Source: Escherichia coli (GTDB lineage Bacteria > Pseudomonadota > Gammaproteobacteria > Enterobacterales > Enterobacteriaceae). From it: a stretch of DNA of 64,000 nucleotides. A model generated the notes under the pieces. The model had not been told where the DNA came from and searched no databases. It was given only the letters and a program-made list of their open reading frames with translations. The stretch is taken from the NCBI RefSeq assembly GCF_029227855.1, contig NZ_CP074356.1; one strand, 5' to 3'. The position numbers and the translations under genes were made by a program. Positions 4,537-55,230 of the stretch are shown here, piece after piece (within the stretch, counting starts at the first letter, position 1; each line of letters starts with the position of its first letter).

Positions 4537-5646
4537 ATGAACGAACAATCCCAGGCCAAATCACCAGAAGCCTTGCGCGCAATGGTCGCCGGGACACTGG
4601 CCAATTTTCAGCACCCAACCCTGAAGCATAACCTCACCACGCTGAAAGCGTTGCACCATGTCGCCTGGATGGACGACACGTTGCATGTGGAACTGGTTAT
4701 GCCATTCGTCTGGCATAGCGCGTTCGAAGAGTTAAAAGAGCAATGTAGCGCCGAACTGCTGCGCATCACCGGGGCGAAAGCTATCGACTGGAAACTGTCG
4801 CACAATATCGCCACCTTAAAACGCGTGAAGAATCAGCCGGGAATTAACGGCGTGAAGAACATCATTGCGGTCAGCTCCGGTAAAGGCGGCGTGGGTAAAT
4901 CTTCCACGGCGGTAAACCTGGCGTTGGCACTCGCGGCGGAAGGGGCGAAAGTCGGCATTCTGGACGCCGATATCTACGGCCCATCAATCCCCACCATGCT
5001 GGGCGCAGAAAATCAGCGTCCAACTTCGCCGGACGGTACCCATATGGCACCGATTATGTCTCATGGACTGGCAACCAATTCAATTGGTTATCTGGTCACT
5101 GACGACAATGCGATGGTGTGGCGTGGTCCGATGGCGAGCAAGGCGTTAATGCAGATGTTGCAGGAAACCTTGTGGCCGGATCTCGACTATCTGGTGCTTG
5201 ATATGCCGCCAGGCACCGGTGACATTCAATTGACACTGGCACAAAACATTCCAGTAACTGGCGCGGTAGTGGTCACCACCCCGCAGGACATTGCGTTGAT
5301 CGATGCGAAAAAAGGCATTGTGATGTTCGAGAAAGTCGAGGTTCCGGTGCTCGGTATTGTCGAGAACATGAGTGTGCATATTTGCAGTAACTGTGGTCAC
5401 CATGAACCGATTTTCGGTACCGGTGGTGCTGAGAAACTGGCTGAAAAATACCACACACAGCTGCTGGGGCAGATGCCGTTACACATCTCCTTACGTGAGG
5501 ATCTCGATAAAGGCACGCCAACGGTTATCAGCCGTCCGGAGAGCGAATTTACCGCTATCTACCGCCAGCTGGCTGACCGCGTTGCAGCTCAGCTCTACTG
5601 GCAGGGTGAAGTCATTCCAGGCGAGATTTCCTTCCGCGCGGTCTAA
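4537..5646 (+). CDS. apbC: Fe-S cluster carrier ATPase Mrp/ApbC
   Basis: ORF 4507..5646; start placed at MNEQSQAK (369 aa); Walker A GKGGVGKSST and ParA/MinD-like fold motifs. Confidence 0.9.
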   Translation: MNEQSQAKSPEALRAMVAGTLANFQHPTLKHNLTTLKALHHVAWMDDTLHVELVMPFVWHSAFEELKEQCSAELLRITGAKAIDWKLSHNIATLKRVKNQPGINGVKNIIAVSSGKGGVGKSSTAVNLALALAAEGAKVGILDADIYGPSIPTMLGAENQRPTSPDGTHMAPIMSHGLATNSIGYLVTDDNAMVWRGPMASKALMQMLQETLWPDLDYLVLDMPPGTGDIQLTLAQNIPVTGAVVVTTPQDIALIDAKKGIVMFEKVEVPVLGIVENMSVHICSNCGHHEPIFGTGGAEKLAEKYHTQLLGQMPLHISLREDLDKGTPTVISRPESEFTAIYRQLADRVAAQLYWQGEVIPGEISFRAV

Positions 5647-40575: not shown

Positions 40576-43500
40576 TTACGCCTCCTCTTCATGGCGAGCA
40601 AAGCGACTTTTGGTCCACAATGCCAGGCGGTCGAACAGCAGATAAATCACCGGCGTGGTGAACAGCGTCAGCACCTGGCTGACAATCAGACCGCCGACCA
40701 TGCCGATACCTAACGGACGACGCAGTTCCGCGCCGACCCCGGTACTCAACATCAGCGGCAGCGCGCCAAGCAGAGCCGCCAGAGTGGTCATCAGGATCGG
40801 ACGAAAACGTAACAGACAAGCCTGGTAGATTGCCTCGCGCGGCGACATGCCTTGCTCGCGCTCAGCAGCCAGCGCGAAGTCGATCATCATGATGGCGTTC
40901 TTCTTCACGATACCGATCAGCAAAATAATGCCGATAATCGCAATCACATCCAGCTCGCTACCGGCAATCAGTAACGCCAGCAGTGCGCCGACCCCTGCGG
41001 TGGGTAGCGTCGAGAGAATGGTGATCGGGTGAATAAAGCTCTCGTACAGAATGCCGAGCACGATATACATCGCCACCACCGCCGCGACAATCAGCCAGAC
41101 AGTGCTGCCCAACGCCGACTGGAAGGCGAGGGTGCTGCCCTGGAACTGCGTGGTGATATCCACCGGCAGATTCAGCGTCTTTTCGGTGTCCATAATCGCC
41201 TGCACCGCATCGCCCAGCGAATAGTTATCCGGCACGTTAAAGGAGATGGTCGTTACCGGGAACTGATCCAGATGGTTGATGGAAAGCGGCGCAAAACGCT
41301 GCTCAATTTTGGCAATTGAGCTTAACGGCACCACTCCACCGTCGCTGCTGGTCAGGCGAATGGTATCCAGCGCCGCGAGGCCTGGGGTATTTTCGGTGTT
41401 GTGTTCCAGCACCACGCGATACTGGTTAGCCTGAGTATAAATAGTGGAAATCAGCCGCTGACCAAACGCGTTGTACAGGGCGTTATCGACATCCGCCATG
41501 CTGATCCCCAGACGGCTGGCGCTGTCGCGATCAACATTGACATACGCCACCAGCCCTTTGTCCTGCCAGTCGCTGGAGACATCAGATAGCTGTGGCAGCT
41601 GCTGGAGTTTTTCCATCAACTGTGGCACCCAGGTACTGAGCGCATCCAGTGACGTGGCCTGCAAGGTAAACTGGTACTGGGTGCGGCTGACCTGAGTATC
41701 GATGGTCAGGTCCTGCGTTGGTTGCAGGAAGAGATCGACGCCCGGCACTTTATCCACCGCCGTTTGCAGACGGGCGATGACTTTTTGCACCCGATCATCA
41801 CGTTCATCCAGCGGTTTGAGGTTGATCTGCAAACGCGCACTGTTCAGCGACGGGTTAGTGCCATCAACGCCAACAAATGAGGTCAGACTTTGCACTGCCG
41901 GATCCTGCAAAATCACGTCCGCGACCTGGCGTTGCCGCTGGGCCATATTGGCAAAGGAGCTGGATTGCGGTGCCTGCAAAGTGCCCTGAATAATGCCGTT
42001 ATCCTGTACCGGGAAGAAACCTTTCGGAATGAACACCCACAACAGCACGCTAAGCAGCAGCGTGCTGAGTGCCACGCTTAAGGTCAGCCACGGATGATTC
42101 AGCACTTTCGCCAGTCCACGACCATAGGCGGCGATTATCCTGTCGAACATTTTCTCCGAGGCTCGGGAGAAGCGATTCTGTTTACGCAGCGACTCCTGGC
42201 TGAGCATCCGCGCGCACATCATCGGCGTCAGAGTCAGCGACACCACGGCTGAGATCAAAATTGCTACCGCCAGGGTAATGGCAAACTCGCGGAACAGTCG
42301 CCCGACGATATCGCCCATAAACAGTAGCGGGATCAGCACTGCAATCAGCGAGAAGGTCAGCGAGATAATGGTAAAACCGATTTCACCTGCGCCTTTGAGC
42401 GCCGCCGCCAGCGGTTTTTCGCCTTTTTCGATATAGCGCGAAATGTTCTCGATCACCACGATGGCGTCATCGACCACGAATCCGGTGGCGATAGTTAACG
42501 CCATCAGCGTCAGGTTATTGATCGAAAAATCGAGAAACACCATGACTGCGAAGGTGCCGATTAACGACAGCGGCACTGCGACGCCAGGAATAATGGTCGC
42601 CGGAATATTGCGCAAAAACAGGTAGATAATCATGACTACCAGCGCGATAGCCATCATCAGTTCAAACTGGGTATCGTCGACCGATGCGCGGATGTTGGTG
42701 GTGCGGTCAGAAAGCACCGTCACTTTTACCGATTTCGGCAAACTCTCGGTGAGTTGTGGCAGCATCTGCCGGATGCTGTCGGCGGTGGAGATAATGTTAG
42801 CACCGGGCTGGCGCTGAACATTCATCACAATGGCCTGTTCTTTGTTCGCCCACGCGCCGAGCCAGCTGTTTTCTGCTCCTTGCTCTACGGTTGCGACATC
42901 GCCCAGACGAATCGGCGCGCCGTTCTGGTAGGCGATGATCAGCTGGCGATACTCTTCGGCGGATTGCATCTGGTCGTTCGCGGAAAGTGTGACCGCACGG
43001 GAAGGGCCGTCGAGGCTACCTTTTGCCGAGTTAACGTTAGCGCCGGTAATAGCGGTGCGCACGGTTTCGCTGGTCAGGCCGAGGGCGGCAATCGCCTGGG
43101 CGTTAAGTTTGACGCGAACAGCCGGACGCTGGCCGCCGGAAAGCGTCACCAGGCCGACGCCGGAAATCTGCGAGATTTTTTGCGCGACGCGGGTTTCCAC
43201 CATATCTTCCACTTGCGTCATCGGCATGGCGGTTGAGGTGACAGCGAGCGTCATGATTGGCGGATCTGCCGGGTTCACTTTGCTGTAAACCGGCGGGTTA
43301 GGCAGATCGCTCGGTAGCAGGTTGGTCGCAGCGTTAATCGCGGCCTGCACTTCCTGCTCGGCGACATCCAGCGGTAATGTTAGCTGGAACTGCAAAGTGA
43401 TAACTGACGCACCGCCGGAACTTTGCGACGACATCTGTTTCAGGCCGGACATCTGCCCGAACTGGCGTTCGAGCGGCGCGGTAACGGCAGAGGTCATGAC

Positions 43501-43698
43501 ATCCGGGCTGGCACCTGGGTAGAGGGTGACCACCTGAATGGTTGGATAGTCCACTTCCGGCAGCGCCGAAACGGGCAGGGCACGATAACCGATAATCCCG
43601 GCGAGTAAGATCGCCACCATCAGCAGCGTGGTGGCGACAGGACGCATAATAAACAGGCGCGATGGGCCGCCTGTGCTGCTCGGGGGTAACACCTGCAT
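40576..43698 (-). CDS. mdtB: RND multidrug efflux permease MdtB
   Basis: 1040-aa AcrB-family ORF immediately upstream of mdtC. Confidence 0.95.
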
Positions 43699-44945
43699 CA
43701 GGAGCGTGCTCCTTTTTTCGCGTATTCGCGGCTGGTGGCTTTCTCTTCCGGAGTGGTGGCGCTCTGGGCTTCCACTACTTCCACTTTCGCCCCTTCGGTC
43801 AGGCGATCAATGCCGTCTGTCACTACGCGGTCGCCCGCAGAAATACCTGCGCGGATCACCACTTTCTGACTGTCCTGAATGCCCGGCGTCACCAGATGTT
43901 TGCTGACCTTGTTTTCGCTATTCAGCACCCAGACAAAATGGCCTTCATTGCCCATTTGCAGGGCGGCGGTGGGGATCACCACGGCGTTTTGTTCGGTGTC
44001 GACTAACATACGCGCGTTAACAAACTGATTGGGAAACAGTGCATCATCCTGATTATTAAAGCGTGCTTTCACTTTAATCGTACCGGTAGTGGCATCGATT
44101 TGGTTATCGAGGCTTAACAGCGTGCCTTCACTTAATTTCTTCGAGTTGGTGCGATCCCAGGCTTCAACAACCAGCGGTTTTCCGGCTTTTTGCGCCTGTA
44201 CTACGGTAGCGATATCGCTTTCCGGCAGGGTAAAGACTAAATCGATAGGGTGCGTCTGGGTGATCACCACAATCCCGGTGGTATCACCACTGGAGATTTG
44301 GTTACCAACATCAACCTGCTTGAGACCAACGCGACCATCGACTGGTGCGGTGATGCGGCTCCAGTCGAGTTGCAGCTGCGCGCTGGCGACGCTTGCTTCA
44401 TCAGCCTTAATGGTGCCTTCGGTTTCACTGACCAGCGCCTGTTGGGCATCCAGCTCCTGACGAGATACGAGATTGGTTTTTACCAGTTGTTGATAACGCG
44501 CCAGGTCACGGCGGGCGTTGGCAAGCGTGGCTTTATCTTTTGCCAGTTGGCCCTGGGCTTGTGCTAATGCAACTTTGAACTGGCTTGGGTCAATTTCTGC
44601 CAGTAAATCGCCTGCTTTGACCTGCTGGCCTTCCTGGAAATGTAACGCTATCAGTTGGCCGTCCACGCGGCTGCGCACCGTAACGGTATTAGCGGCGGTA
44701 ATGGTGCCAAGCCCGGTGAGGTAACGCGGAACTGCCTGTTCTACGGCGGTCGCCGCCTGAACCGGGGCTAATGGGCCGGAACGCATACCACGGCGACCAC
44801 CCGCTGGCGATTGCTGCGCTTGTTTCGTCGCCCCTGGGGCTGCACTCCGGGAGTCATTGCGGCCTTGCCAGAACCAGAATGCGGCGATGGCGGCGATAAC
44901 CACCACGATTACGATTACCCAACGGGATTTATAACTGCCTTTCAT
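43698..44945 (-). CDS. mdtA: RND efflux membrane fusion protein MdtA
   Basis: ORF 43698..45092; start placed at [16 protein letters not shown] (415 aa). Confidence 0.9.
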
Positions 44946-44998
44946 CGTTAAGAGTTTCTCTTCCTGAAACGTTTCGCGGAATGATACTAGTGTAGCCA

Positions 44999-45016
44999 GC
45001 CAATAAGGGAGAAAAA
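44999..45016 (-). promoter_or_regulatory. Putative BaeR binding box upstream of mdtA
   Basis: Minus strand reads tttttctcccttattggc, close to the BaeR box consensus as recalled (TTTTTCTCCATDATTGGC). Confidence 0.5.
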
Positions 45017-45169
45017 TGGAGGAATTATGAAACACTATCGGGAATCGTCTGAATGGCGGGCACATTTGCGAGCACGCATCCAGTAATAACACATGAAACT
45101 ATTTTATCTACGCGTTAGCGATAGACTACGTGCATGGCGAAAGGAGGTAAGCCGATGATTTCAGCGGGA

Positions 45170-45310
45170 CGCTGAAACGGGAAAGCCCCTCCCGAGGAAG
45201 GGGCCATAAATAAATAAGGAAAGGGTCATGATGAAGCTACTCATCATCGTGGTGCTCTTAGTCATTAGCTGGCCAGCTTACTAAGACTACCAGGGCGGGG
45301 GAAACCCCGC
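45170..45310 (-). ncRNA. sib: Sib-family antisense sRNA (antitoxin) covering ibs copy 1; ends approximate
   Basis: Sib antitoxins are encoded fully antisense to ibs; minus-strand hairpin gcccctc/gaggggc at 45184-45204 followed by a U-rich stretch could be the 3' end. Confidence 0.5.
45228..45284 (+). CDS. ibs: Ibs-family type I toxin (18 aa, MMKLLIIVVLLVISWPAY)
   Basis: Small hydrophobic ORF preceded by aaggaaagggtc SD; matches the Ibs toxin family pattern. Below the ORF-track length cutoff. Confidence 0.75.
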   Translation: MMKLLIIVVLLVISWPAY

Positions 45311-45497
45311 TCTACCCTCACTCCTGAAAGTATGCCTTCACGATAAGATTGTCAATCTGCAGGCTTTGCAGTCTGCGATCCTGCCAGCAAATATTCTTTG
45401 CGAGACGTTACGCAATAATCACACTGGAAACTATTTTATCCGCAAGTCAGCGATAGACTGCATACAGGGCGAAAGGAGGTAAGCCGACGATTTCAGC

Positions 45498-45638
45498 GGG
45501 ACGCTGAAACGGGAAAGCCCCTCCCGAGGAAGGGGCCTTAAATAAGGAAAGGGTCATGATGAAGATACTCATCATCGTGGTGCTCTTAGTGATTAGCTAC
45601 CCAGCATACTAAGACTACCAGGGCGGGGGAAACCCCGC
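45498..45638 (-). ncRNA. sib: Sib-family antisense sRNA covering ibs copy 2; ends approximate
   Basis: Position inferred by repeat periodicity relative to copy 1. Confidence 0.45.
45556..45612 (+). CDS. ibs: Ibs-family type I toxin (18 aa, MMKILIIVVLLVISYPAY)
   Basis: Second repeat unit; same SD and ORF architecture. Confidence 0.75.
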   Translation: MMKILIIVVLLVISYPAY

Positions 45639-45826
45639 TCTACCCTCACTCCTGAAATTATGCCTTCACGATAAGATTGTCAATCTGCAGGCTTTGCAGT
45701 CTGCGATCCTGCCAGCAAATATTCTTTGCGAGTCGTTACGCAATAATCACAGAGGAAACTATTTTGTTCACGCGTTAGCGATAGACTGCATTCAGGGCGA
45801 AAGGAGGTAAGCCGACGATTTCAGCG

Positions 45827-45967
45827 GGACGCTGAAACGGGAAACCCTCTCCCGGAGAAGAGGGCTTTTAATAAGGAAAGGGTTATGATGAAGCACGTCA
45901 TCATACTGGTGATACTCTTAGTGATTAGCTTCCAGGCTTACTAAGAACACCAGGGGGAGGTGGAAAC
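45827..45967 (-). ncRNA. sib: Sib-family antisense sRNA covering ibs copy 3; ends approximate
   Basis: Position inferred by repeat periodicity. Confidence 0.45.
45885..45944 (+). CDS. ibs: Ibs-family type I toxin (19 aa, MMKHVIILVILLVISFQAY)
   Basis: Third repeat unit; variant C-terminus (FQAY). Confidence 0.7.
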   Translation: MMKHVIILVILLVISFQAY

Positions 45968-46164
45968 CTCTCCCTAACCCTCACTCCTGAAATTATGTCA
46001 CTCCGCCCTTAGTGTCAATCGACGGCTCTCCGTTCTTGCGAGGCGAATAGCAAAATTTTCTGCGCCGCCGGGCCTAATTCTGAAAGTTTCTTCGTTTGCT
46101 CTTATTTCATTATTGCAGTCGGTATGATACCGGACCTCAATAATTCTCTAAGAAAGGATTTCTT

Positions 46165-46824
46165 ATGAGCGAACAAATCACGTTTGCCACCAGCGATTTT
46201 GCCAGTAACCCGGAACCACGTTGCCCCTGCATTTTGCTGTTGGATGTTTCTGGTTCGATGAGTGGTAGACCTATTAATGAACTTAACGCCGGATTGGTTA
46301 CCTTTCGCGATGAGCTGCTTGCCGATTCGCTGGCCTTAAAAAGAGTGGAACTCGGTATTGTGACGTTCGGCCCGGTGCATGTGGAACAACCCTTTACCAG
46401 CGCCGCTAATTTTTTCCCGCCCATCCTGTTTGCCCAAGGCGATACACCAATGGGGGCCGCCATTACCAAAGCCCTGGATATGGTTGAGGAGCGCAAACGT
46501 GAGTATCGCGCCAATGGTATTTCCTATTATCGTCCGTGGATTTTCCTGATCACTGATGGCGCACCAACCGATGAGTGGCAGGCTGCCGCCAACAAAGTGT
46601 TTCAGGGGGAAGAAGATAAGAAGTTTGCCTTCTTTTCCATCGGTGTTCAGGGGGCGGATATGAAGACTTTGGCACAAATCAGCGTTCGTCAGCCTTTGCC
46701 ACTGCAGGGATTACAATTCCGTGAACTGTTTAGCTGGTTATCCAGTTCGCTGCGTTCGGTTTCCCGCTCCACGCCGGGAACGGAAGTTGTGCTGGAAGCG
46801 CCAAAAGGCTGGACGTCAGTGTGA
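46165..46824 (+). CDS. yegL: von Willebrand factor A (vWA) domain protein
   Basis: 219-aa ORF with MIDAS motif [11 protein letters not shown]. Confidence 0.8.
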
Positions 46825-47582
46825 GCTGGCGTCTGGTCTATGCATCAACCGTTGGAACGTCGCACATCAGCGCGGACTTGCCTTGCCAGGATGCCTGCCA
46901 GATGCAGGTTGCCTGGTTAAATGACCAGCAGCCATTATTGTCGGTATTTGTCGCTGATGGCGCAGGCAGTGTCTCGCAGGGTGGCGAAGGCGCGATGCTC
47001 GCCGTCAATGAAGCGATGGCTTATATGTCGCAAAAAGTGCAGGGCGGGGAATTGGGGCTTAATGATGTCCTCGCCACGGATATTGTGCTGACCATTCGTC
47101 AACGACTTTTTGCCGAGGCGGAAGCCAAAGAATTAGCGGTTCGCGATTTTGCCTGCACATTTCTGGGACTGATTTCATCGCCTGACGGCACCTTGATTAT
47201 GCAGATTGGCGATGGCGGCGTGGTGGTAGATTTGGGTCACGGTCTGCAATTGCCTCTCACGCCGATGGTGGGTGAATATGCCAACATGACGCACTTCATT
47301 ACCGACGAAGATGCCGTTTCCAGACTGGAAACTTTCACCAGCACTGGGCGTGCGCATAAAGTTGCAGCATTTACGGATGGTATTCAGCGACTGGCGTTAA
47401 ATATGCTGGATAATTCTCCGCATGTGCCTTTCTTTACCCCGTTTTTCAATGGACTGGCGTCAGCAACGCAGGAACAACTCGATTTATTACCTGAATTGTT
47501 AAAGCAGTTTTTGTCCAGCCCGGCGGTAAACGAGCGTACCGATGATGATAAAACGTTGGCACTGGCGCTGTGGTTACCATGA
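46821..47582 (+). CDS. yegK: PP2C-family Ser/Thr protein phosphatase
   Basis: 253-aa ORF; PP2C-like motifs (..[10 protein letters not shown].., ..IGDGGVVV..); GTG start overlapping the yegL stop. Confidence 0.8.
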
Positions 47583-49519
47583 AACCCACTTTATATACTG
47601 CTACTGGTGAGTGCGTTACGCCAGGCCGTGAACTGGGCAAAGGTGGCGAAGGCGCGGTTTATGATATCGAGGAGTTTGTCGATAGCGTCGCTAAGATTTA
47701 TCACACGCCGCCACCCGCCTTAAAACAGGACAAACTTGCCTTTATGGCTGCGACAGCTGACGCGCAGTTGTTGAATTATGTCGCCTGGCCGCAGGCAACG
47801 CTTCACGGTGGACGAGGCGGAAAGGTTATCGGTTTTATGATGCCAAAAGTTTCTGGTAAAGAACCGATTCATATGATCTATAGCCCGGCACATCGTCGCC
47901 AGAGTTACCCTCATTGTGCGTGGGATTTTCTACTCTATGTTGCGCGCAATATTGCTTCATCTTTTGCTACGATTCACGAGCACGGGCACGTCGTGGGTGA
48001 CGTAAACCAGAATAGCTTTATGGTAGGTCGCGACAGCAAAGTGGTGTTGATTGATAGCGACTCCTTTCAGATTAACGCTAATGGCACGTTGCATTTATGC
48101 GAAGTTGGCGTGTCGCATTTTACGCCGCCAGAGCTACAAACCTTGTCGTCATTTGTCGGCTTTGAACGCACAGAAAATCACGATAATTTTGGCCTAGCGT
48201 TGCTGATTTTTCACGTCTTGTTTGGTGGGCGGCATCCTTATTCTGGTGTGCCGCTTATCTCTGATGCGGGGAATGCACTGGAGACGGATATTGCCCATTT
48301 CCGTTATGCCTACGCGTCAGATAATCAGCGACGTGGTTTAAAACCGCCGCCACGATCTATTCCGCTGTCGATGTTACCGGGCGATGTTGAAGCCATGTTT
48401 CAGCAGGCATTCACGGAAAGTGGCGTGGCAACCGGGCGTCCGACGGCAAAAGCGTGGGTAGCGGCACTTGATTCTCTACGCCAACAGTTAAAGAAATGTA
48501 CCGTTTCGGCAATGCATGTTTACCCCGGTCATTTGACTGACTGCCCGTGGTGTGCGCTGGATAATCAAGGCGTTATCTATTTTATTGATCTCGGCGAAGA
48601 GGTCATTACCACCGGCGGTGATTTTGTGCTGGCGAAAGTCTGGGCGATGGTGATGGCGTCAGTAGCACCGCCAGCATTGCAACTGCCATTACCCGATCAT
48701 TTTCAACCGACCGGCAGGCCGCTTCCTTTAGGCCTGTTACGGCGTGAATACATCATTCTGATTGAGATCGCACTGTCAGCGTTATCGCTGTTGCTTTGCG
48801 GCCTTCAGACAGAACCGCGTTATATTATTTTGGTTCCTGTGCTGGCGGCTATCTGGATTATTGGCAGCCTGACAAGCAAAGCGTACCAAGCAGAAATCCA
48901 GCAACGCCGTGAGGCGTTTAATCGTGCGAAAATGGACTATGACCATTTAGTCAGCCAGACCCAACGGTTGGGCGGGCTGGAAGGTTTTATAGCCAAACGG
49001 ACGATGCTCGAAAAAATGAAGGACGAAATTCTTGGGTTACCGGAAGAAGAAAAGCGCGATCTGGCAGCACTTCAGGACACCGCAAGGGAACGGCAGAAGC
49101 AGAAGTTTCTGGAGGGATTTTTTATTGATGTTGCCTCTATTCCCGGCGTTGGCCCTGTGCGTAAAGCGGCGTTACGGTCCTTTGGTATTGAAACGGCGGC
49201 AGACGTTACCCGACGGAGCGTTAAGCAAGTGAAAGGTTTTGGTGATCATCTGACCCAGGCGGTTATCGACTGGAAAGCGAGTTGCGAACGCCGTTTTGTT
49301 TTCAGGCCGAACGAAGCGGTAACGCCTGCAGACAGACAAGCGGTAATGGCAAAAATGGCCGCCAAACGACATCGGCTGGAATCGGCGCTGACTGTCGGCG
49401 CGACAGAGTTGCAGCGATTCCGCCTTCATGCTCCAGCACGGACCATGCCGTTGATGGAACCGTTACGTCAGGCGGCAGAAAAACTGGCTCAGGCGCAGGC
49501 AGATTTAAGCCGCTGCTGA
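47579..49519 (+). CDS. yegI: Eukaryotic-like (atypical) Ser/Thr protein kinase with C-terminal extension
   Basis: ORF 47570..49519; ATG at 47579 overlaps the yegK stop (ATGA); Gly-rich loop LGKGGEGAVY, catalytic-loop-like HGHVVGDVNQNSF and DSDSF; predicted TM segment and helix-hairpin-helix-like C-terminus. Confidence 0.8.
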   Translation: MKPTLYTATGECVTPGRELGKGGEGAVYDIEEFVDSVAKIYHTPPPALKQDKLAFMAATADAQLLNYVAWPQATLHGGRGGKVIGFMMPKVSGKEPIHMIYSPAHRRQSYPHCAWDFLLYVARNIASSFATIHEHGHVVGDVNQNSFMVGRDSKVVLIDSDSFQINANGTLHLCEVGVSHFTPPELQTLSSFVGFERTENHDNFGLALLIFHVLFGGRHPYSGVPLISDAGNALETDIAHFRYAYASDNQRRGLKPPPRSIPLSMLPGDVEAMFQQAFTESGVATGRPTAKAWVAALDSLRQQLKKCTVSAMHVYPGHLTDCPWCALDNQGVIYFIDLGEEVITTGGDFVLAKVWAMVMASVAPPALQLPLPDHFQPTGRPLPLGLLRREYIILIEIALSALSLLLCGLQTEPRYIILVPVLAAIWIIGSLTSKAYQAEIQQRREAFNRAKMDYDHLVSQTQRLGGLEGFIAKRTMLEKMKDEILGLPEEEKRDLAALQDTARERQKQKFLEGFFIDVASIPGVGPVRKAALRSFGIETAADVTRRSVKQVKGFGDHLTQAVIDWKASCERRFVFRPNEAVTPADRQAVMAKMAAKRHRLESALTVGATELQRFRLHAPARTMPLMEPLRQAAEKLAQAQADLSRC

Positions 49520-49531
49520 GCCATTTTTCAA

Positions 49532-50884
49532 TTAACGAAACACCACTTCCGCCCAGCGTGCCAGCCCGGCGGTGACGGAGCCAAAGTCATCGCCGCCTGC
49601 AATCGGAATGCCCGGCAACTGTTCTGCCAGCGCTTTTTTAATCAGCGGCGAACGGGCGCTACCGCCGGTCAGGTAGATGACATCCGGTTTTTCCTGGGCG
49701 TTATCCAGCGCCAGTTGCACCTGTTCCAGAATCCGCATCAGTGGCTGGTTGAGGGCGCTTTCCAGCCCTTGCTGGCTAATCAGCGTAGCCAGTTCATCGC
49801 TGATAAACGGCAGTGAGGCGCGGGTTTCCGCTACGCTTGAAAGCGCAATTTTGCTCTCTTCTGCGCTACGTACCAGGCGATAGCTTAAACGCTGACGCCA
49901 GACTTTCTGTAACAGGGCCACTTTTTCCGGTTCGCGGGCATCGCGTACCAGATCGTTAAGCAGACGACCGTTGGCACTACTGTAGAAATCACTTTGCGCA
50001 GGTACGTCGTTGATGGCAACCGCATTCCACCACGGCAGAATCGGCAGGGCGATGCCTTTTTCGGTTTCGCCACCCATGCCCAGTAACGGCATCAGGTTTT
50101 TAAACGCCAGTGCGATATCCAGATCGTTACCGCCAATACGGCAACCACTGTGACCCAGCAGGCTGGCTTCACGATCGAGACGCGAACGCCACTGCGGCCC
50201 CATCAGCAGCAATGAACAGTCAGTCGTACCACCGCCGATATCCACCACCAGCACCCGTTTTTCTTCCTGCAAGGTGGCTTCGTAATCCAGCCCAGCCGCG
50301 ACCGGCTCGTACTGGAATACCACATCCTTAAACCCGGCACGCTTCGCCGCGCGTTCCAGAATCCCCTGCGCCTGGGTGTTTGCTTCATCGCCGCCCAGCC
50401 CCTGGAAGTTGATAGGGCGACCAATCACCGCCTGAGTAATCGCTTCTGGCAGCTGTGCCTGCGCCTGCTGGCGAATGTGCAACATCATTGCGCAGACCAG
50501 ATCCTCAAACAGCGCTACCTGCTGCGGTTTTAAGCCGCTGGCACCGAGGAACGATTTTGGTGATTTCACAAACCACACTTCTTCTGGATCATCAATGTAC
50601 TGTGCCAGTGAGGAAAGACCGAACTGCACGCTTTTCGCCGTAACATCGATATCTTCTTCGCGGTTATAACGAATCGCCCGACGCAACAGCGCCTGCGTTT
50701 CATCGTCGTCTGCCGGAACATCATGATGGCGGTACAGCCATTCGCTTACCGCTTCACGCGTTGGCGCGCAAAGCATTGAAGGCAGCAGCGTGCTGTCGTT
50801 TTCCATTTTCAGTAATTGCGGCTTACCGTCGCGCATGACCGCCACTGAACAGTTTGCTGTACCGTAATCAAAACCAATAAACAC
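49532..50884 (-). CDS. yegD: Hsp70-family (actin-like ATPase) protein YegD
   Basis: ORF 49532..50947; start placed at the GTG giving (M)FIGFDYGTANCSVAV (450 aa); DnaK-like phosphate-1 motif. Confidence 0.85.
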   Translation of the reverse strand: MFIGFDYGTANCSVAVMRDGKPQLLKMENDSTLLPSMLCAPTREAVSEWLYRHHDVPADDDETQALLRRAIRYNREEDIDVTAKSVQFGLSSLAQYIDDPEEVWFVKSPKSFLGASGLKPQQVALFEDLVCAMMLHIRQQAQAQLPEAITQAVIGRPINFQGLGGDEANTQAQGILERAAKRAGFKDVVFQYEPVAAGLDYEATLQEEKRVLVVDIGGGTTDCSLLLMGPQWRSRLDREASLLGHSGCRIGGNDLDIALAFKNLMPLLGMGGETEKGIALPILPWWNAVAINDVPAQSDFYSSANGRLLNDLVRDAREPEKVALLQKVWRQRLSYRLVRSAEESKIALSSVAETRASLPFISDELATLISQQGLESALNQPLMRILEQVQLALDNAQEKPDVIYLTGGSARSPLIKKALAEQLPGIPIAGGDDFGSVTAGLARWAEVVFR

Positions 50885-51017: not shown

Positions 51018-51875
51018 ATGTATACCTTGAACTGGCAGCCGCCGTATGACTGGTCGTGGATGTTGGGATTTCTCGCCGCCCGTGCGGTGAACGGTGTGGA
51101 AACGGTCGCTGACGATTATTATGCCCGTAGTCTGGCGGTGGGCGAATGTCGCGGCGTGGTGACTGCTATTCCGGATATAGCCAGCCATACTCTGCACATA
51201 AATTTAAGTGCAGGTTTAGAACCCGTTGCCGCAGAGTGTCTGGCGAAAATGAGCCGCCTGTTTGATCTGCAATGTAACCCGCAGATTGTTAACGGTGCGT
51301 TGGGCAAGTTAGGCGCGGCACGGCCCGGATTGCGTTTACCCGGTTGTGTTGATGCTTTTGAGCAGGGCGTGCGGGCGATTTTAGGCCAGCTGGTGAGCGT
51401 GGCGATGGCGGCAAAATTGACCGCCAGAGTGGCACAGCTTTATGGCGAACGGCTGGATGATTTTCCGGATTATGTCTGCTTCCCCACGCCTCAGCGGCTG
51501 GCAGCAGCCGACCCGCAGGCATTAAAAGCGTTAGGTATGCCGTTGAAACGGGCAGAGGCGCTGATTAATCTGGCAAATGCGGCGCTGGAGGGCACCTTAC
51601 CAATGACAATTCCGGGCGACGTAGAGCAAGCGATGAAAACGCTGCAAACTTTTCCGGGTATCGGGCGCTGGACGGCGAATTATTTCGCCTTACGTGGCTG
51701 GCAGGCGAAAGATGTTTTCCTGCCGGATGATTATCTGATTAAACAGCGATTTCCGGGAATGACACCGGCACAAATCCGCCGTTATGCCGAACGCTGGAAG
51801 CCCTGGCGTTCTTATGCGCTGTTGCATATCTGGTATACGGAAGGCTGGCAACCAGACGGAACGGACGAATTGTAG
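51018..51875 (+). CDS. alkA: DNA-3-methyladenine glycosylase II
   Basis: 285-aa ORF; HhH-GPD motif region (..TFPGIGRWTANYFALRG..). Confidence 0.9.
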   Translation: MYTLNWQPPYDWSWMLGFLAARAVNGVETVADDYYARSLAVGECRGVVTAIPDIASHTLHINLSAGLEPVAAECLAKMSRLFDLQCNPQIVNGALGKLGAARPGLRLPGCVDAFEQGVRAILGQLVSVAMAAKLTARVAQLYGERLDDFPDYVCFPTPQRLAAADPQALKALGMPLKRAEALINLANAALEGTLPMTIPGDVEQAMKTLQTFPGIGRWTANYFALRGWQAKDVFLPDDYLIKQRFPGMTPAQIRRYAERWKPWRSYALLHIWYTEGWQPDGTDEL

Positions 51876-51896
51876 GCCTGATACGCCGCATCAGGC
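51875..51896. repeat. REP-like palindrome
   Basis: gcctgatacgccgcatcaggc between the convergent alkA and dgcE. Confidence 0.4.
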
Positions 51897-51912
51897 GATG
51901 GGGAAGCTCGCC

Positions 51913-54900
51913 TCAGTTAATCGCGAAATAACTGCTATTCACCAGCAAATCCAGCGGTTGGGCATCGGCAATCACATCGCCATAAATCAGATCGACGCCG
52001 ATGCCAGAAAGCGTATCCATCACCAGGGGTAAAACTACTGGCCCGGCGATGGTCTTCATCCCGAGCCGCTGAGCGTGCCCCTGAATGATCGTAATCAGCA
52101 TCTCATCCATCAAATTTCCCTGCACGTTGGCGCATAACTCACCATCAAGTAGTAGGTAATCTGCCATATTTGCTTTCAGCGAGTTGAAGATTTGCAGATC
52201 GCGGCCCACCTGACTGAATACGATCCGACATCCCGCCAGCCGCAGTTTTTGCACGCTTTCTGCGTGATCTAAAATCGCTTCTGCCGGAATAATCAGATGT
52301 AATAACCGTGGTGGTAAAGGGCTGTTTTCCAGCTGTTCAAGCAGTTCATTTACCAGTGTGGCGCTACTCAAACCGGCAACAGAAAGGGGGAGGGCGATGC
52401 TTATGCCTTTACTGGCAATCGCTTTTGCGGCCTGCTGGAAAAAATCGTGGAATACCCGTCGGTCAAGAGCATGGCTAAGTGCCGGATCGCTGAAGCTACG
52501 ACGAAATGTTTGTTCATCAATAATCTCGCCTTCGCAACTCCAGAGCTTAAGTGAAATCAGCCACAAATTACGTGCTTCCGGGATCCGCGGCGAAGCGACA
52601 CCGTGGGCGATCATCATCAACTGATTCTCTTTAATCATCCGCCACTGTTCATCAAGCGACATCGCCGCCCGTTCGCTATGTGCGGTAGCTTGCTGCGGTT
52701 CGTAAATCGTCACCCGGCCCCGGCCACCATTTTTGGAGGCATAACAGGCGATATCAGCCTGCGACATCACTTCAGCCGCCTGATGATTGTTGTCATCAAT
52801 CAAGGTAATCCCGGCACTGGCACCTACCCGATGTACACGTCCTTCCCAGATAAAGTGATAGTCATTCACGGCGCTGATAATGCGTGTAGCGATAAAACGC
52901 GCACTTTCGACATTACAATCTGGCAGCAGCAGACCAAATTCATCGCCACCGAGTCGCGCCAGCACGTCGCTGGAGCGCAGCATACTCAGCATCAACGACG
53001 CCAGTTCGCGCAGTAAAGCGTCGCCAGCGGCGTGCCCGGCGCTGTCATTCACCGCTTTAAAGCGATCAAGATCGATAAACACCAGTGCATGTCGCTGATG
53101 TGTACTGTTTACCGTTTGCAGCAGGATGCGTAGTTGCTTCTCAAAACTGGCGCGATTGGCGAGATGCGTCAGTGCATCATGGGAGGCGCTGTAGCTCAGC
53201 TGGCGCAGCATTTTGCGCGATTCGGTGACGTCCTGAATCACCAGAACCGAGCCTATATTGCTGCCGTCCAGAGTACTTAACGGCGTAATACTATAATGCA
53301 CGTCGTAGCTGCCGCCGCTCCGACAGTGCAACACCACATCTTGTTCAATCGCGGAACGTGAGGTGTCGGCACTGTAAATGTTCTCCATTAATGGTCCGTT
53401 GTCGCCAAAAGTAATATGCAACACCGTTAGGAGCGGAACACCTAATGCTTCTTCCTGCGTCCAGCCGCTCATCTTCTCCGCCACCGGATTCATAAAGGTA
53501 ATTTTCATCGCCATATCAATACAGACCACGGCTTCACCGATGGAGTCCAGCGTAATGTGCAGGCGCTCTTTTTCCTGAAACAATGCCTCGTTAAGCTGTT
53601 TCACTTCGGTCATATCCATATTAATGCCGAGCAGGCGTTCGACTTCGCCTTCTTTATTCAGTACCCGGTTAGCGAGGGCGCGGATATGGCGAATGCCGTC
53701 TTTCACGGTAATGCGAAATTCCAGTTTAAAGGGAGAGCGTGATTGCAATGAATCGCGAATCACTTTTTCGGCGTGCTGGCGATCTTCCGGCAGCACGCAC
53801 TCGTACCACACCTGCCAGTTCGGTTTGATATGCGGAGGAATTTCATACAGCTCGAACATCCGCTTATCCCAGCTAAAAATATTCGGCTTTAGCTCCCACT
53901 CCCAGATGCCAATCCCGCCCGCTTCGTTAGCCAGCGTGATGCGCTCCATCAGTTGCTGATTCACCTGTTCGGTGCGTTTTAGCTCGTTAATGTCTTCAAT
54001 CTGAGCGATAAAATAGAGCGGCGTGCCATCCGTGTGGCGTACCAGTGAGACGGCAAGCAACGCCCAGACAACATCGCCATTGCGGTTGTAGTAGCGTTTT
54101 TCCATTGAATAGGTGTTTATTTCACCGCTGATCAGCTTTTCAACCTGTTGCAGATCTTTATTGAGATCCTCCGGCCAGGTCAGTTGCTGAAAGGTGAGTC
54201 CGCGCAGTTCTTCCTGACTGTAACCGAGAAACTGGCAGAGTGCTTTGTTGGATTGCAGCCATTGCCCTTCGGTGCCCACTAATGCCATGCCGATGGCGGA
54301 ATATTCCATCGCGTTACGAAAACGGGTTTCGCTTTCGGAAATGTGTTTGCGTTCCGCACGAAAGGCATACATCACCATGGTCATGATGTTGGCGGGCAGC
54401 AGGATCAGCAAAAACGGTAGCCACGGCATATGGCTCATCAGGTATGTACGCGGCGTAGCAAGCAGGGAGGGATCAGCGGCCATCATCAGTGACACCATCA
54501 TCACCGTGGTAAGGAAGATCAAAAAGGCTTCCATTCGTGGCAGGCGCACGGCGCTCCACATCAACAGCACAATAATGAAAGTAAAAGGCCACGGCAGATA
54601 CAGCATCGAAAGCCAGCTTAACGTCAGTGTGATGGCTAACGTGAGCAGCGACTCAAAAAGCAACCGTGGGTTGCGATGGCGCAGCAGATAGTGTGGTTTA
54701 AATAACAACCCCAGCGGCACCAGTGCCAGTGCGCCGATGGATTCTGAAAGTACCCATATCAAAAATGCCCTGAGAGGATCGTCTCCGGGCGTCAGCAGGA
54801 CAACCAGAACACCCCCCAACAGAGGCGGAACAATGGCGCTGCCGAGTGCCAGACGCAGCCAGTCAGCCAGATTTTGCAATGGGTTATACCACGGCAGCAA

Positions 54901-55230
54901 TTTACGCAGTAGCACTGCCCCGACCACGGCTTCAACAATATTGATGGTCGTCCAGGTCATGTTCAGCGAGCTGGTGGAAAAAAGCAGGATGGATGCGGCG
55001 ATATTTCCCAGCGAGCAGCTCAGCGCAATCCCCGGCCACATGCGCCCGGCATGGCGATAAAACGCCACCATCATGATGGACGTCGGGAACCACAATGGGG
55101 CGAGTTGGGTGCCAAACTGCGAAAGCTCAAGCGAGAAAAGGGTAAAGATAAACGAGACTAAACCTAAACTGACCAGGTGAAGCAGCGGGTGGGGCAGGGC
55201 AATTAATACATGCTGTGATTGTTTGCTCAT
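51913..55230 (-). CDS. dgcE: Multidomain diguanylate cyclase DgcE (MASE1-PAS-GGDEF-EAL)
   Basis: 1105-aa ORF; N-terminal membrane MASE1-like region, PAS repeats, GGDEF motif (RLGGDEFGLLL) and a C-terminal EAL-like domain. Confidence 0.9.
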   Translation of the reverse strand: MSKQSQHVLIALPHPLLHLVSLGLVSFIFTLFSLELSQFGTQLAPLWFPTSIMMVAFYRHAGRMWPGIALSCSLGNIAASILLFSTSSLNMTWTTINIVEAVVGAVLLRKLLPWYNPLQNLADWLRLALGSAIVPPLLGGVLVVLLTPGDDPLRAFLIWVLSESIGALALVPLGLLFKPHYLLRHRNPRLLFESLLTLAITLTLSWLSMLYLPWPFTFIIVLLMWSAVRLPRMEAFLIFLTTVMMVSLMMAADPSLLATPRTYLMSHMPWLPFLLILLPANIMTMVMYAFRAERKHISESETRFRNAMEYSAIGMALVGTEGQWLQSNKALCQFLGYSQEELRGLTFQQLTWPEDLNKDLQQVEKLISGEINTYSMEKRYYNRNGDVVWALLAVSLVRHTDGTPLYFIAQIEDINELKRTEQVNQQLMERITLANEAGGIGIWEWELKPNIFSWDKRMFELYEIPPHIKPNWQVWYECVLPEDRQHAEKVIRDSLQSRSPFKLEFRITVKDGIRHIRALANRVLNKEGEVERLLGINMDMTEVKQLNEALFQEKERLHITLDSIGEAVVCIDMAMKITFMNPVAEKMSGWTQEEALGVPLLTVLHITFGDNGPLMENIYSADTSRSAIEQDVVLHCRSGGSYDVHYSITPLSTLDGSNIGSVLVIQDVTESRKMLRQLSYSASHDALTHLANRASFEKQLRILLQTVNSTHQRHALVFIDLDRFKAVNDSAGHAAGDALLRELASLMLSMLRSSDVLARLGGDEFGLLLPDCNVESARFIATRIISAVNDYHFIWEGRVHRVGASAGITLIDDNNHQAAEVMSQADIACYASKNGGRGRVTIYEPQQATAHSERAAMSLDEQWRMIKENQLMMIAHGVASPRIPEARNLWLISLKLWSCEGEIIDEQTFRRSFSDPALSHALDRRVFHDFFQQAAKAIASKGISIALPLSVAGLSSATLVNELLEQLENSPLPPRLLHLIIPAEAILDHAESVQKLRLAGCRIVFSQVGRDLQIFNSLKANMADYLLLDGELCANVQGNLMDEMLITIIQGHAQRLGMKTIAGPVVLPLVMDTLSGIGVDLIYGDVIADAQPLDLLVNSSYFAIN

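Follow-up and report, generated by a model that had tools for sequence, protein, structure and literature searches.

The yegL-pphC-yegI triad of Escherichia coli: a TerY-P-type gene set of a distinct variety and its possible role in defense

As given in later accounts (PMC11090510, PMC4978471), the TerY-P triad of Anantharaman, Iyer and Aravind (2012) is made up of a von Willebrand factor A (vWA) protein resembling TerY, a phosphatase of the PP2C type, and a kinase bearing a zinc ribbon at its C-terminus, and was proposed to be a phosphorylation switch tied to DNA processing and restriction, as well as a metal-sensing stress switch. The first of these accounts also describes the TerY-P kinases linked to CoCoNuT systems as kinase-zinc-ribbon fusions, and kinase relatives with other C-terminal nucleic-acid-binding domains, namely an OB fold or a zinc ribbon (PMC11090510). 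A TerY-P-like triad with an OB-fold kinase protects Escherichia coli from T7-like phages (Gao et al. 2020, as cited elsewhere), and TerY-P of Pseudomonas aeruginosa protects against Autographiviridae without culture collapse (Costa et al. 2024). Here we analyze yegL, pphC (yegK) and yegI, three consecutive genes in a 64,000-nt stretch of E. coli DNA (contig NZ_CP074356.1; hereafter the window). Judged from its predicted domains, this triad matches the 2012 architectural definition of TerY-P, and on balance, with modest confidence, we favor the reading that it is a conflict module of TerY-P type, serving defense against phages or invading DNA, that lies silent in E. coli grown in the laboratory.

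The locus is already known: its genes are named, its enzymes have been characterized, and the triad concept is published, and for this reason the pay-off of the present analysis is incremental. What the analysis contributes is TerY-P as the comparator, grounds for striking yegD and ibs/sib from the list of partners, an account of how the triad was inserted, a dissection of YegI into domains, and evidence that its family lives beside defense genes yet eludes the PADLOC TerY-P models. Ser/Thr kinase/phosphatase pairs are very few in E. coli. Placement with TerY-P directs attention to phages and plasmids, and interest in the locus would rise if the intact non-K-12 operon were found to restrict either.

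A three-gene module and its genomic company

The 4.7-kb region holding the triad is 100% identical to the E. coli chromosome JNEC-KY178, where the RefSeq annotation agrees, and is carried by 5423 of 5426 complete E. coli genomes. On the plus strand, yegL (46165-46824; 219 amino acids [aa]) encodes a stand-alone vWA protein with a complete metal ion-dependent adhesion site (MIDAS), pphC (46821-47582; 253 aa, GTG start) a PP2C-type Ser/Thr phosphatase, and yegI (47579-49519; 646 aa, ATG start) a divergent Hanks-type kinase. Start and stop codons overlap by 4 nt at both junctions, as GTGA between yegL and pphC (46821-46824) and as ATGA between pphC and yegI (47579-47582), which confirms the coupling that the initial annotation of this stretch, made from the sequence alone, had noted. 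Its identification of the set as vWA plus PP2C plus Ser/Thr kinase likewise agrees with the Pfam matches, the Pkinase matches of relatives, AlphaFold and Foldseek comparison, and published enzymology. The coupling found in this strain is, however, not universal in E. coli: in K-12 MG1655, yegJ (DUF2314), encoded on the other strand, separates pphC from yegI (positions 4686-5147 of locus L093), breaking the ATGA overlap and altering the N-terminus of YegI, which has 648 aa in K-12. As to co-transcription of the three genes, on which the annotation had also staked its grouping, the Dworkin laboratory could not detect transcription of the locus.

A scan of one genome per species yielded at least 568 YegI relatives confirmed by tblastn, from which 80 loci were kept, 68 of them with enough upstream DNA. 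In 67 of these 68 a PP2C gene adjoins the kinase, and in 65 the kinase gene is immediately preceded, on its own strand, by both the vWA and the PP2C gene, with exact 4-nt overlaps frequent at the junctions. The loci span Gamma-, Beta- and Alphaproteobacteria, Actinobacteria, Firmicutes (Paenibacillus, Clostridiales) and Acidobacteria, and further Chlorobi, Synergistetes, Cyanobacteria, Planctomycetes and Methanomicrobia. The recurrence of this gene order, with its close spacing, in independent loci across phyla puts the coupling beyond chance, and the co-conservation on which the earlier grouping also hung is upheld. All-against-all clustering of flanking open reading frames (ORFs) revealed no recurrent fourth gene in the 80 loci, the sole clustered flanking gene being a clade-specific TetR-like gene in Competibacteraceae. 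Counted as 50%-identity clusters, the YegI family numbers 9,696 at E <= 1e-3 and 3,236 at E <= 1e-30. We conclude from these comparisons of gene order and distribution that vWA-PP2C-kinase is a self-contained three-gene module that has spread horizontally.

The mobility of the family is evident from where its members reside. The nearest relatives outside Escherichia are only about 60% identical and come from Betaproteobacteria and from a few Klebsiella, in which they occupy another site on the chromosome, and full-length copies are found on Pseudomonas megaplasmids and on plasmids of Cupriavidus, Ralstonia, Methylocystis and Mesorhizobium. A conjugative plasmid variant, in pBSY17_2 of Sphingobium sp. 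RAC03 (L087 5528-9115), has a longer kinase (719 aa), annotated with a topoisomerase DNA-binding C4 zinc finger; genes for an integrase and a GIY-YIG nuclease follow it immediately downstream, and upstream lies one for an "ATP-binding protein". From phage genomes the kinase is essentially absent, with one weak match.

Defense genes are common beside the triad. Pfam annotation of neighbors identified a SLFN-type helicase, MazG-like, ScoMcrA-N/NOV_C, HIT, SNase, BrxR and JetB in Piscinibacter; AbiH, a KAP NTPase and Tn7-like genes in Chromobacterium; GmrSD, SymE and type I restriction-modification in Klebsiella; AbiJ at one other locus; and Mrr, TIR-NB-ARC-TPR, PIN and several ParE/Phd pairs at another. 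One further locus annotated in the same way had no defense-type neighbors. PADLOC was then run on the five nearest ORFs of eight additional, taxonomically spread loci and placed defense genes in six of the eight, a count given without a formal background control; on the rough assumption that a few per cent of all genes serve defense, about one locus in eight would be expected. The PADLOC calls comprise Avs2 in Rhodoferax (2926 bits), GajA and GajB directly upstream in Pseudomonas alcaligenes, UzuA directly upstream in P. arcuscaelestis, PDC-S01 directly downstream in a Synergistaceae genome, TniQ with PDC-M08B in Paenibacillus, and a type II methyltransferase with mad2 in a Methanomicrobiales genome; nothing convincing was called at the Georgenia and Acidobacterium loci. 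Taken together with the published TerY-P phenotypes, this company makes defense the most likely role.

Protein architecture and a proposed switch

YegL consists of a single domain (Pfam VWA, E = 2e-9), and its MIDAS is complete, with D27, S29, S31, T94 and D131 each at least 95% conserved in 66 sequences. The motif DVSGSMSG, singled out by the initial annotation, occupies residues 27-34, and its DxSxS core (DVSGS; 46243-46257, plus strand) contains the invariant D27, S29 and S31. A Ser-rich C-terminal tail of 15 residues (46735-46779, plus strand), in which W191, L192, S193, S195, S200 and S202 are invariant, is a candidate phospho-acceptor. Proteins of the YegL type retain 58-79% identity when those of E. 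coli, Firmicutes, Acidobacteria and methanogenic archaea are compared (loci L008-L082), whereas the adjacent kinases retain only 33-60%; such identity across phyla would reflect either unusually strong constraint or recent transfer. Within Escherichia the ratio of nonsynonymous to synonymous substitution rates (dN/dS) is 0.04-0.07 for yegL, 0.13-0.22 for pphC and 0.10-0.14 for yegI, even between divergent lineages, values that point to purifying selection on all three genes. YegL is thus the most constrained of the three proteins, which suggests that it is a dedicated partner of the other two.

PphC matches Pfam PP2C_2 with E = 2e-52 and has the aspartates conserved in the family alignment (D24, D46, D131, D186, D242 and D243). 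It is an active PP2C phosphatase that dephosphorylates YegI in vitro (Rajagopalan & Dworkin, bioRxiv 10.1101/303594). The initial annotation had made lack of kinase activity in YegI and of phosphatase activity in PphC grounds for abandoning its proposal; published work finds both enzymes active.

YegI is an unusual kinase. E. coli YegI itself does not match Pfam Pkinase, and its only Pfam match is a marginal one to HHH_5 (residues 515-551, E = 0.002); 40 of 50 members of its family do match Pkinase, and the family profile retrieves eukaryotic-type kinases in the PDB. The AlphaFold model (predicted local distance difference test score [pLDDT] 92.4) superposes best on PknB (Foldseek E = 2e-7) and then on other kinases. 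The domain-profile and structure comparisons that had been recommended for this locus thus return the expected vWA and PP2C matches and a kinase fold near PknB. In an alignment of 50 homologues (33-63% identity), on which the conservation statements for YegI rest, the kinase domain (aa 1-300; 47579-48478, plus strand) has invariant K39, D141, N143 and D159-S-D161-S162. YegI autophosphorylates on Ser153/160/162 with a preference for Mn2+, carries VGDxxQxS instead of HRDxxxxN and DSD instead of DFG, and is inactivated by K39D, D141N and DSD-loop mutations (bioRxiv 10.1101/819920).

The description of YegI as an atypical kinase with a long C-terminal extension is borne out, and the extension can be divided into four parts. 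Just after the kinase domain, an invariant CHCC motif (C307-H313-C322-C325; 48497-48553, plus strand) is predicted to form a zinc knuckle or ribbon. Residues ~389-435 (48743-48883, plus strand) form a hydrophobic hairpin, poorly conserved in sequence yet hydrophobic in 49 of the 50 family members; this fits the published two-pass membrane anchor, YegI being a protein of the inner membrane whose N- and C-termini are both inside by PhoA-LacZ fusions (bioRxiv 10.1101/819920). The cytoplasmic remainder (48884-49519, plus strand) is predicted to be an antiparallel coiled-coil stalk with a helix-hairpin-helix (HhH) head (~49121-49291, aa 515-571). A separate model of residues 436-646 (pLDDT 96.3) has a long antiparallel coiled coil and a small helical head; this part has no global match in the PDB, where it matched coiled-coil stalks (dynein stalk, SMC, Rad50, SH3BP5). 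The head locally matches the N-terminal domain of Dmc1, which we take to be an HhH-type DNA-binding domain, with a probability of 0.96 over 60 columns. HHH_5 is matched at E <= 0.1 by 17 of the 50 members, the NCBIfam Pol IV HhH region is also matched, and the HhH glycines and W565/F573 are invariant. From sequence and models, we read the order of YegI as kinase, CHCC motif, transmembrane hairpin, coiled-coil stalk and HhH head, and the head probably binds DNA.

Three longer relatives of YegI (P0168, P0123 and P0223; 770-1160 aa) have C-termini that weakly match PADLOC LmuB or JetC, which are SMC-like coiled coils, suggesting that the C-terminal module has been swapped or expanded within the family.

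By the published experiments, the YegI/PphC pair forms an on/off switch at the cytoplasmic face of the inner membrane, held off by PphC. One could envision that the stalk-mounted HhH head of YegI couples kinase activity to nucleic acid. In relatives the place of the head is taken by an OB fold, by a zinc ribbon or by a topoisomerase C4 zinc finger, and so DNA near the membrane would probably activate the kinase or recruit it. Were the balance to tip toward the kinase, YegI would phosphorylate YegL, host or invader proteins, or several of these, the invariant Ser-rich tail of YegL being the best candidate acceptor. YegL would act as the dedicated partner, with its MIDAS site engaging a ligand or phospho-epitope, and the output would be protection against phages or other invading DNA.

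Insertion history, neighbors and competing explanations

At the syntenic site in Salmonella and Citrobacter, the gene order is dgcE-alkA-yegD-ibs-mdtABC and the triad is missing. Alignment of the junction places the end of homology to the Salmonella and Citrobacter ibs-yegD spacer at ~46055. By this comparison, the triad together with a leader of ~110 nt (~46056-49531, ~3.5 kb) is an insertion between yegD and the ibs/sib unit, acquired horizontally in the Escherichia lineage. The 5' non-coding part of the insert (46056-46164, plus strand) presumably holds the yegL promoter and leader; promoter and terminator scans of the locus, this leader included, gave signals at chance level only. The neighborhood analysis that had been suggested for the locus thus combines co-conservation of the triad with its absence from the syntenic Salmonella and Citrobacter site.

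Several observations weigh against the defense reading. In E. coli the triad belongs to the core genome and keeps one place between housekeeping flanks, with no integrase or mobile-element scars, and GC is 50-55% across it with no compositional sign of recent transfer. The unremarkable GC suggests that the insertion is old and, with the core status and the fixed position, sets the locus apart from typical accessory defense systems. E. coli B strains, which carry the intact coupled operon and which we take to be classical T7 hosts, are T7-sensitive, so the native locus evidently does not block T7. The literature searched contains no report of a phage or plasmid phenotype for yegL-pphC-yegI and no paper tying YegI, PphC or YegL to TerY-P or phage defense. 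The reserve expressed above about the PADLOC sample, which has no background control, belongs here as well. Among complete E. coli genomes, 1933 of 5426 (36%), K-12 included, have yegJ, into which IS1 copies have inserted in some genomes. The Dworkin laboratory found no conditions with detectable transcription of the locus (bioRxiv 10.1101/819920, 10.1101/303594).

The PADLOC profiles, too, fail to connect the triad with described TerY-P systems. PADLOC-DB 2.0 returned no family at E <= 0.01 for YegL or PphC; the TerY profile PDLC02224, the only TerY profile used, gives E = 0.012 and 13 bits on YegL. YegI matches PADLOC profiles only as a generic kinase (PD-T4-6, E = 2e-4, and MkoA). Ten more distant relatives gave no PADLOC TerY-P match either. 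The anticipated profile agreement with described vWA-kinase-phosphatase systems was therefore not obtained for any of the three proteins.

We nevertheless favor the defense reading, on the strength of the genomic company described above. When overproduced, YegL and likewise YegI rank among the "DNA-damage-up" proteins and raise endogenous DNA damage in E. coli, which fits an activity directed at DNA. More tentatively, the YegL-PphC-YegI type may constitute a distinct and very widespread immune module missed by defense finders, in which the membrane-tethered HhH kinase would sense invading DNA, PphC would set the threshold and phospho-YegL would execute the response, with a silent core copy in E. 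coli that yegJ interrupts in K-12; we offer this fuller picture as a possibility only. The PADLOC TerY-P profiles do leave a blind spot, with a family of thousands of clusters beside Avs, Gabija and Uzume genes going uncalled.

Alternatively, the acquired triad may have been co-opted for the physiology of E. coli, in stationary-phase, envelope, metal or DNA-damage responses unrelated to invaders. Its fixed core position in nearly all genomes (5423/5426) and the strong purifying selection on its genes would be expected of domesticated signaling, the DNA damage that follows overproduction of YegL or YegI could be read in the same way, and the original TerY-P proposal was itself of a metal-sensing stress switch. 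Expression of yegI, where reported, is weak and in stationary phase, and yegI mutations are recurrent in long-term evolution lines (bioRxiv 10.1101/819920, 10.1101/303594). However, the triad is missing from the syntenic Salmonella and Citrobacter locus, its family is patchy in bacteria and archaea, plasmid-borne and mostly found among defense and mobile genes, and no endogenous substrate or phenotype is known. We therefore regard domestication as possible, if rather unlikely.

A further explanation, that of an intact operon which E. coli has stopped using and which is heading to decay, would account for the lack of transcription under the laboratory conditions tested, for the presence of yegJ in over a third of genomes (between pphC and yegI in K-12) with IS1 within some copies, and for the many truncated YegI clusters in databases. 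In Escherichia sp. MOD1-EC7003, yegI (L006 8671-10617) has one internal stop that ends the ORF after 462 aa, with 90.5% DNA identity in the rest, and would be a pseudogene unless the stop stems from a sequencing error. As a side observation, pphC of E. coli E69 (L027 2980-3741) shares only 80.8% of its DNA sequence with the allele of the window, with a synonymous divergence (dS) of 0.80, as against 92-93% DNA identity and dS 0.26-0.31 for E69 yegL and yegI; by sequence it looks like a divergent or recombinant allele. The activity of PphC is reported to differ between B and K alleles (bioRxiv 10.1101/303594). A decaying operon, however, should not have dN/dS of 0.04-0.22 in all three genes, also between divergent Escherichia lineages, nor encode a kinase and a phosphatase that are both active in vitro, and 5398 of the 5426 genomes still have 80% or more of the region, with 95-99% identity. 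We thus consider a silent relic improbable.

The triad might instead be part of a larger system together with the convergent Hsp70-like YegD, the ibs/sib toxins, or both. The gene for YegD (49532-50884, minus strand, 450 aa) encodes an Hsp70-family ATPase, scored as a "molecular chaperone" by an NCBIfam equivalog (810 bits), and it does lie where the initial annotation had placed it, the stop codons of yegI and yegD being 12 nt apart (49517-49534). A scan of this gap found no terminator-like structure between the stops, and at such spacing transcripts from each side must run on into the facing gene. A sigma-S-dependent O157 ORF antisense to yegI (Z3239) is listed in a run-off study of sigma-S in vitro. 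According to a 2026 paper, YegJ binds RNase E and yegJ overexpression induces yegD, and Kaur, Burroughs, Iyer and Aravind (2020) describe conflict systems in which an Hsp70 without the peptide-binding domain, or a kinase plus PP2C plus vWA, is paired with GTPases. These hints are outweighed by synteny. YegD-like ORFs are confined to Escherichia loci and absent from every non-Escherichia triad locus, no fourth gene recurs in the 80 loci, and YegD orthologues 88-90% identical are encoded in Salmonella and Citrobacter, where yegD abuts ibs-mdtA without the triad and ibs holds the same ancestral position. Since both neighbors are kept there without the triad, they are bystanders: yegD is an ancestral neighbor outside the module, and the toxin repeats, which do adjoin the triad as had been pointed out, have no functional link to it beyond shared ancestral synteny. 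A partnership with either is largely refuted, and we hold a four-part system to be very improbable.

Membership in the ternary conflict systems of Kaur et al. (2020), which are built of a MoxR AAA+ ATPase, a vWA partner and a VMAP or iSTAND component, has almost no probability left and is refuted by gene content, because a vWA protein with MIDAS in a set of three genes is the sole resemblance, no AAA+ (MoxR), VMAP or iSTAND gene occurs in the window locus or the related loci, and YegL carries no fused effector. The label "ternary signaling systems" given to the operon in the initial annotation was thus mistaken, and TerY-P is the proper comparator; the wider assignment of the gene set to a class proposed as conflict or stress modules stands, by way of the TerY-P concept.

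The remaining features of the neighborhood are ancestral. Between the triad and the efflux genes lie three type I toxin-antitoxin repeats (45213-46018, both strands), each with an ibs ORF on the plus strand (~45228-45284, ~45556-45612 and ~45885-45944; three annotated ibs coding sequences) and a Sib RNA on the minus strand (45213-45355, 45541-45683 and 45870-46018; Rfam SIB_RNA, 140-149 bits each). K-12 has two units here (ibsA/sibA and ibsB/sibB); at the loci compared in Salmonella and Citrobacter a single ibs gene is called in this place, so the copy number of ibs/sib varies. On one side, mdtB and mdtA (RND efflux; 40576-45092, minus strand), and on the other, alkA (plus strand) and dgcE (minus strand; both within 51018-55230), are syntenic with Salmonella and Citrobacter.

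Comparison with known systems

As an enzyme pair, YegI/PphC resembles the Hanks kinase/PP2C pairs PknB-PstP, PrkC-PrpC and Stk1-Stp1, with which it shares the bilobal kinase fold, the catalytic Lys and Asp, and activation-loop Ser autophosphorylation reversed by a PP2C; PknB is also the closest solved structure to the YegI kinase. In contrast to those pairs, YegI has no extracellular PASTA or sensor domain, keeps both termini in the cytoplasm, has an obligatory vWA partner, and diverges from the canonical HRDxxxxN and DFG motifs to the point that E. coli YegI escapes Pfam Pkinase. With the single-gene kinase defenses, PD-T4-6 and Stk2 of Staphylococcus, it would have in common the use of a Ser/Thr kinase as immune effector or sensor, but the likeness extends over only ~100 residues of the catalytic core, and those systems lack PP2C, vWA and HhH components.

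The TerY-P systems shown to act against phages are closer. The triads that Gao et al. (2020) assayed in E. coli and Costa et al. (2024) described in P. aeruginosa have the same gene complement in three stand-alone genes, and a location in defense islands is shared with the YegI family. They differ in that the kinase of the Gao system is fused to an OB fold, whereas the C-terminus of YegI is all-helical (transmembrane hairpin, coiled coil and HhH), and in that the triad analyzed here belongs to the core, not the accessory, genome of E. coli. The primers published for P. aeruginosa TerY-P (Costa et al. 2024) had no match in viral contigs, metagenome contigs or the loci collected here, and a search with a Pseudomonas YegI-type kinase gave no protein named as P. 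aeruginosa among its best 120 matches. Membership of the E. coli triad in the TerY-P family of PADLOC and Gao et al. was therefore rejected: the profiles miss its proteins, and it has no OB fold.

Closest of all is the TerY-P of 2012, with which the E. coli triad has all three components in common: a stand-alone vWA protein with MIDAS, a phosphatase of the PP2C type, and a Ser/Thr kinase extended at its C-terminus by a part that binds zinc or nucleic acid, a binding that is predicted for YegI. The links to mobile islands and to restriction and DNA-processing genes are shared by the YegI family, though not by the E. coli copy itself, which is without adjacent tellurite-resistance or DNA-processing genes, and the YegI type adds a membrane hairpin, a coiled-coil stalk and an HhH head after the CHCC motif. 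We conclude from this comparison of sequences that the E. coli triad is TerY-P-type in the sense of 2012 and belongs to a distinct HhH variety, separate from the family recognized by Gao et al. and PADLOC.

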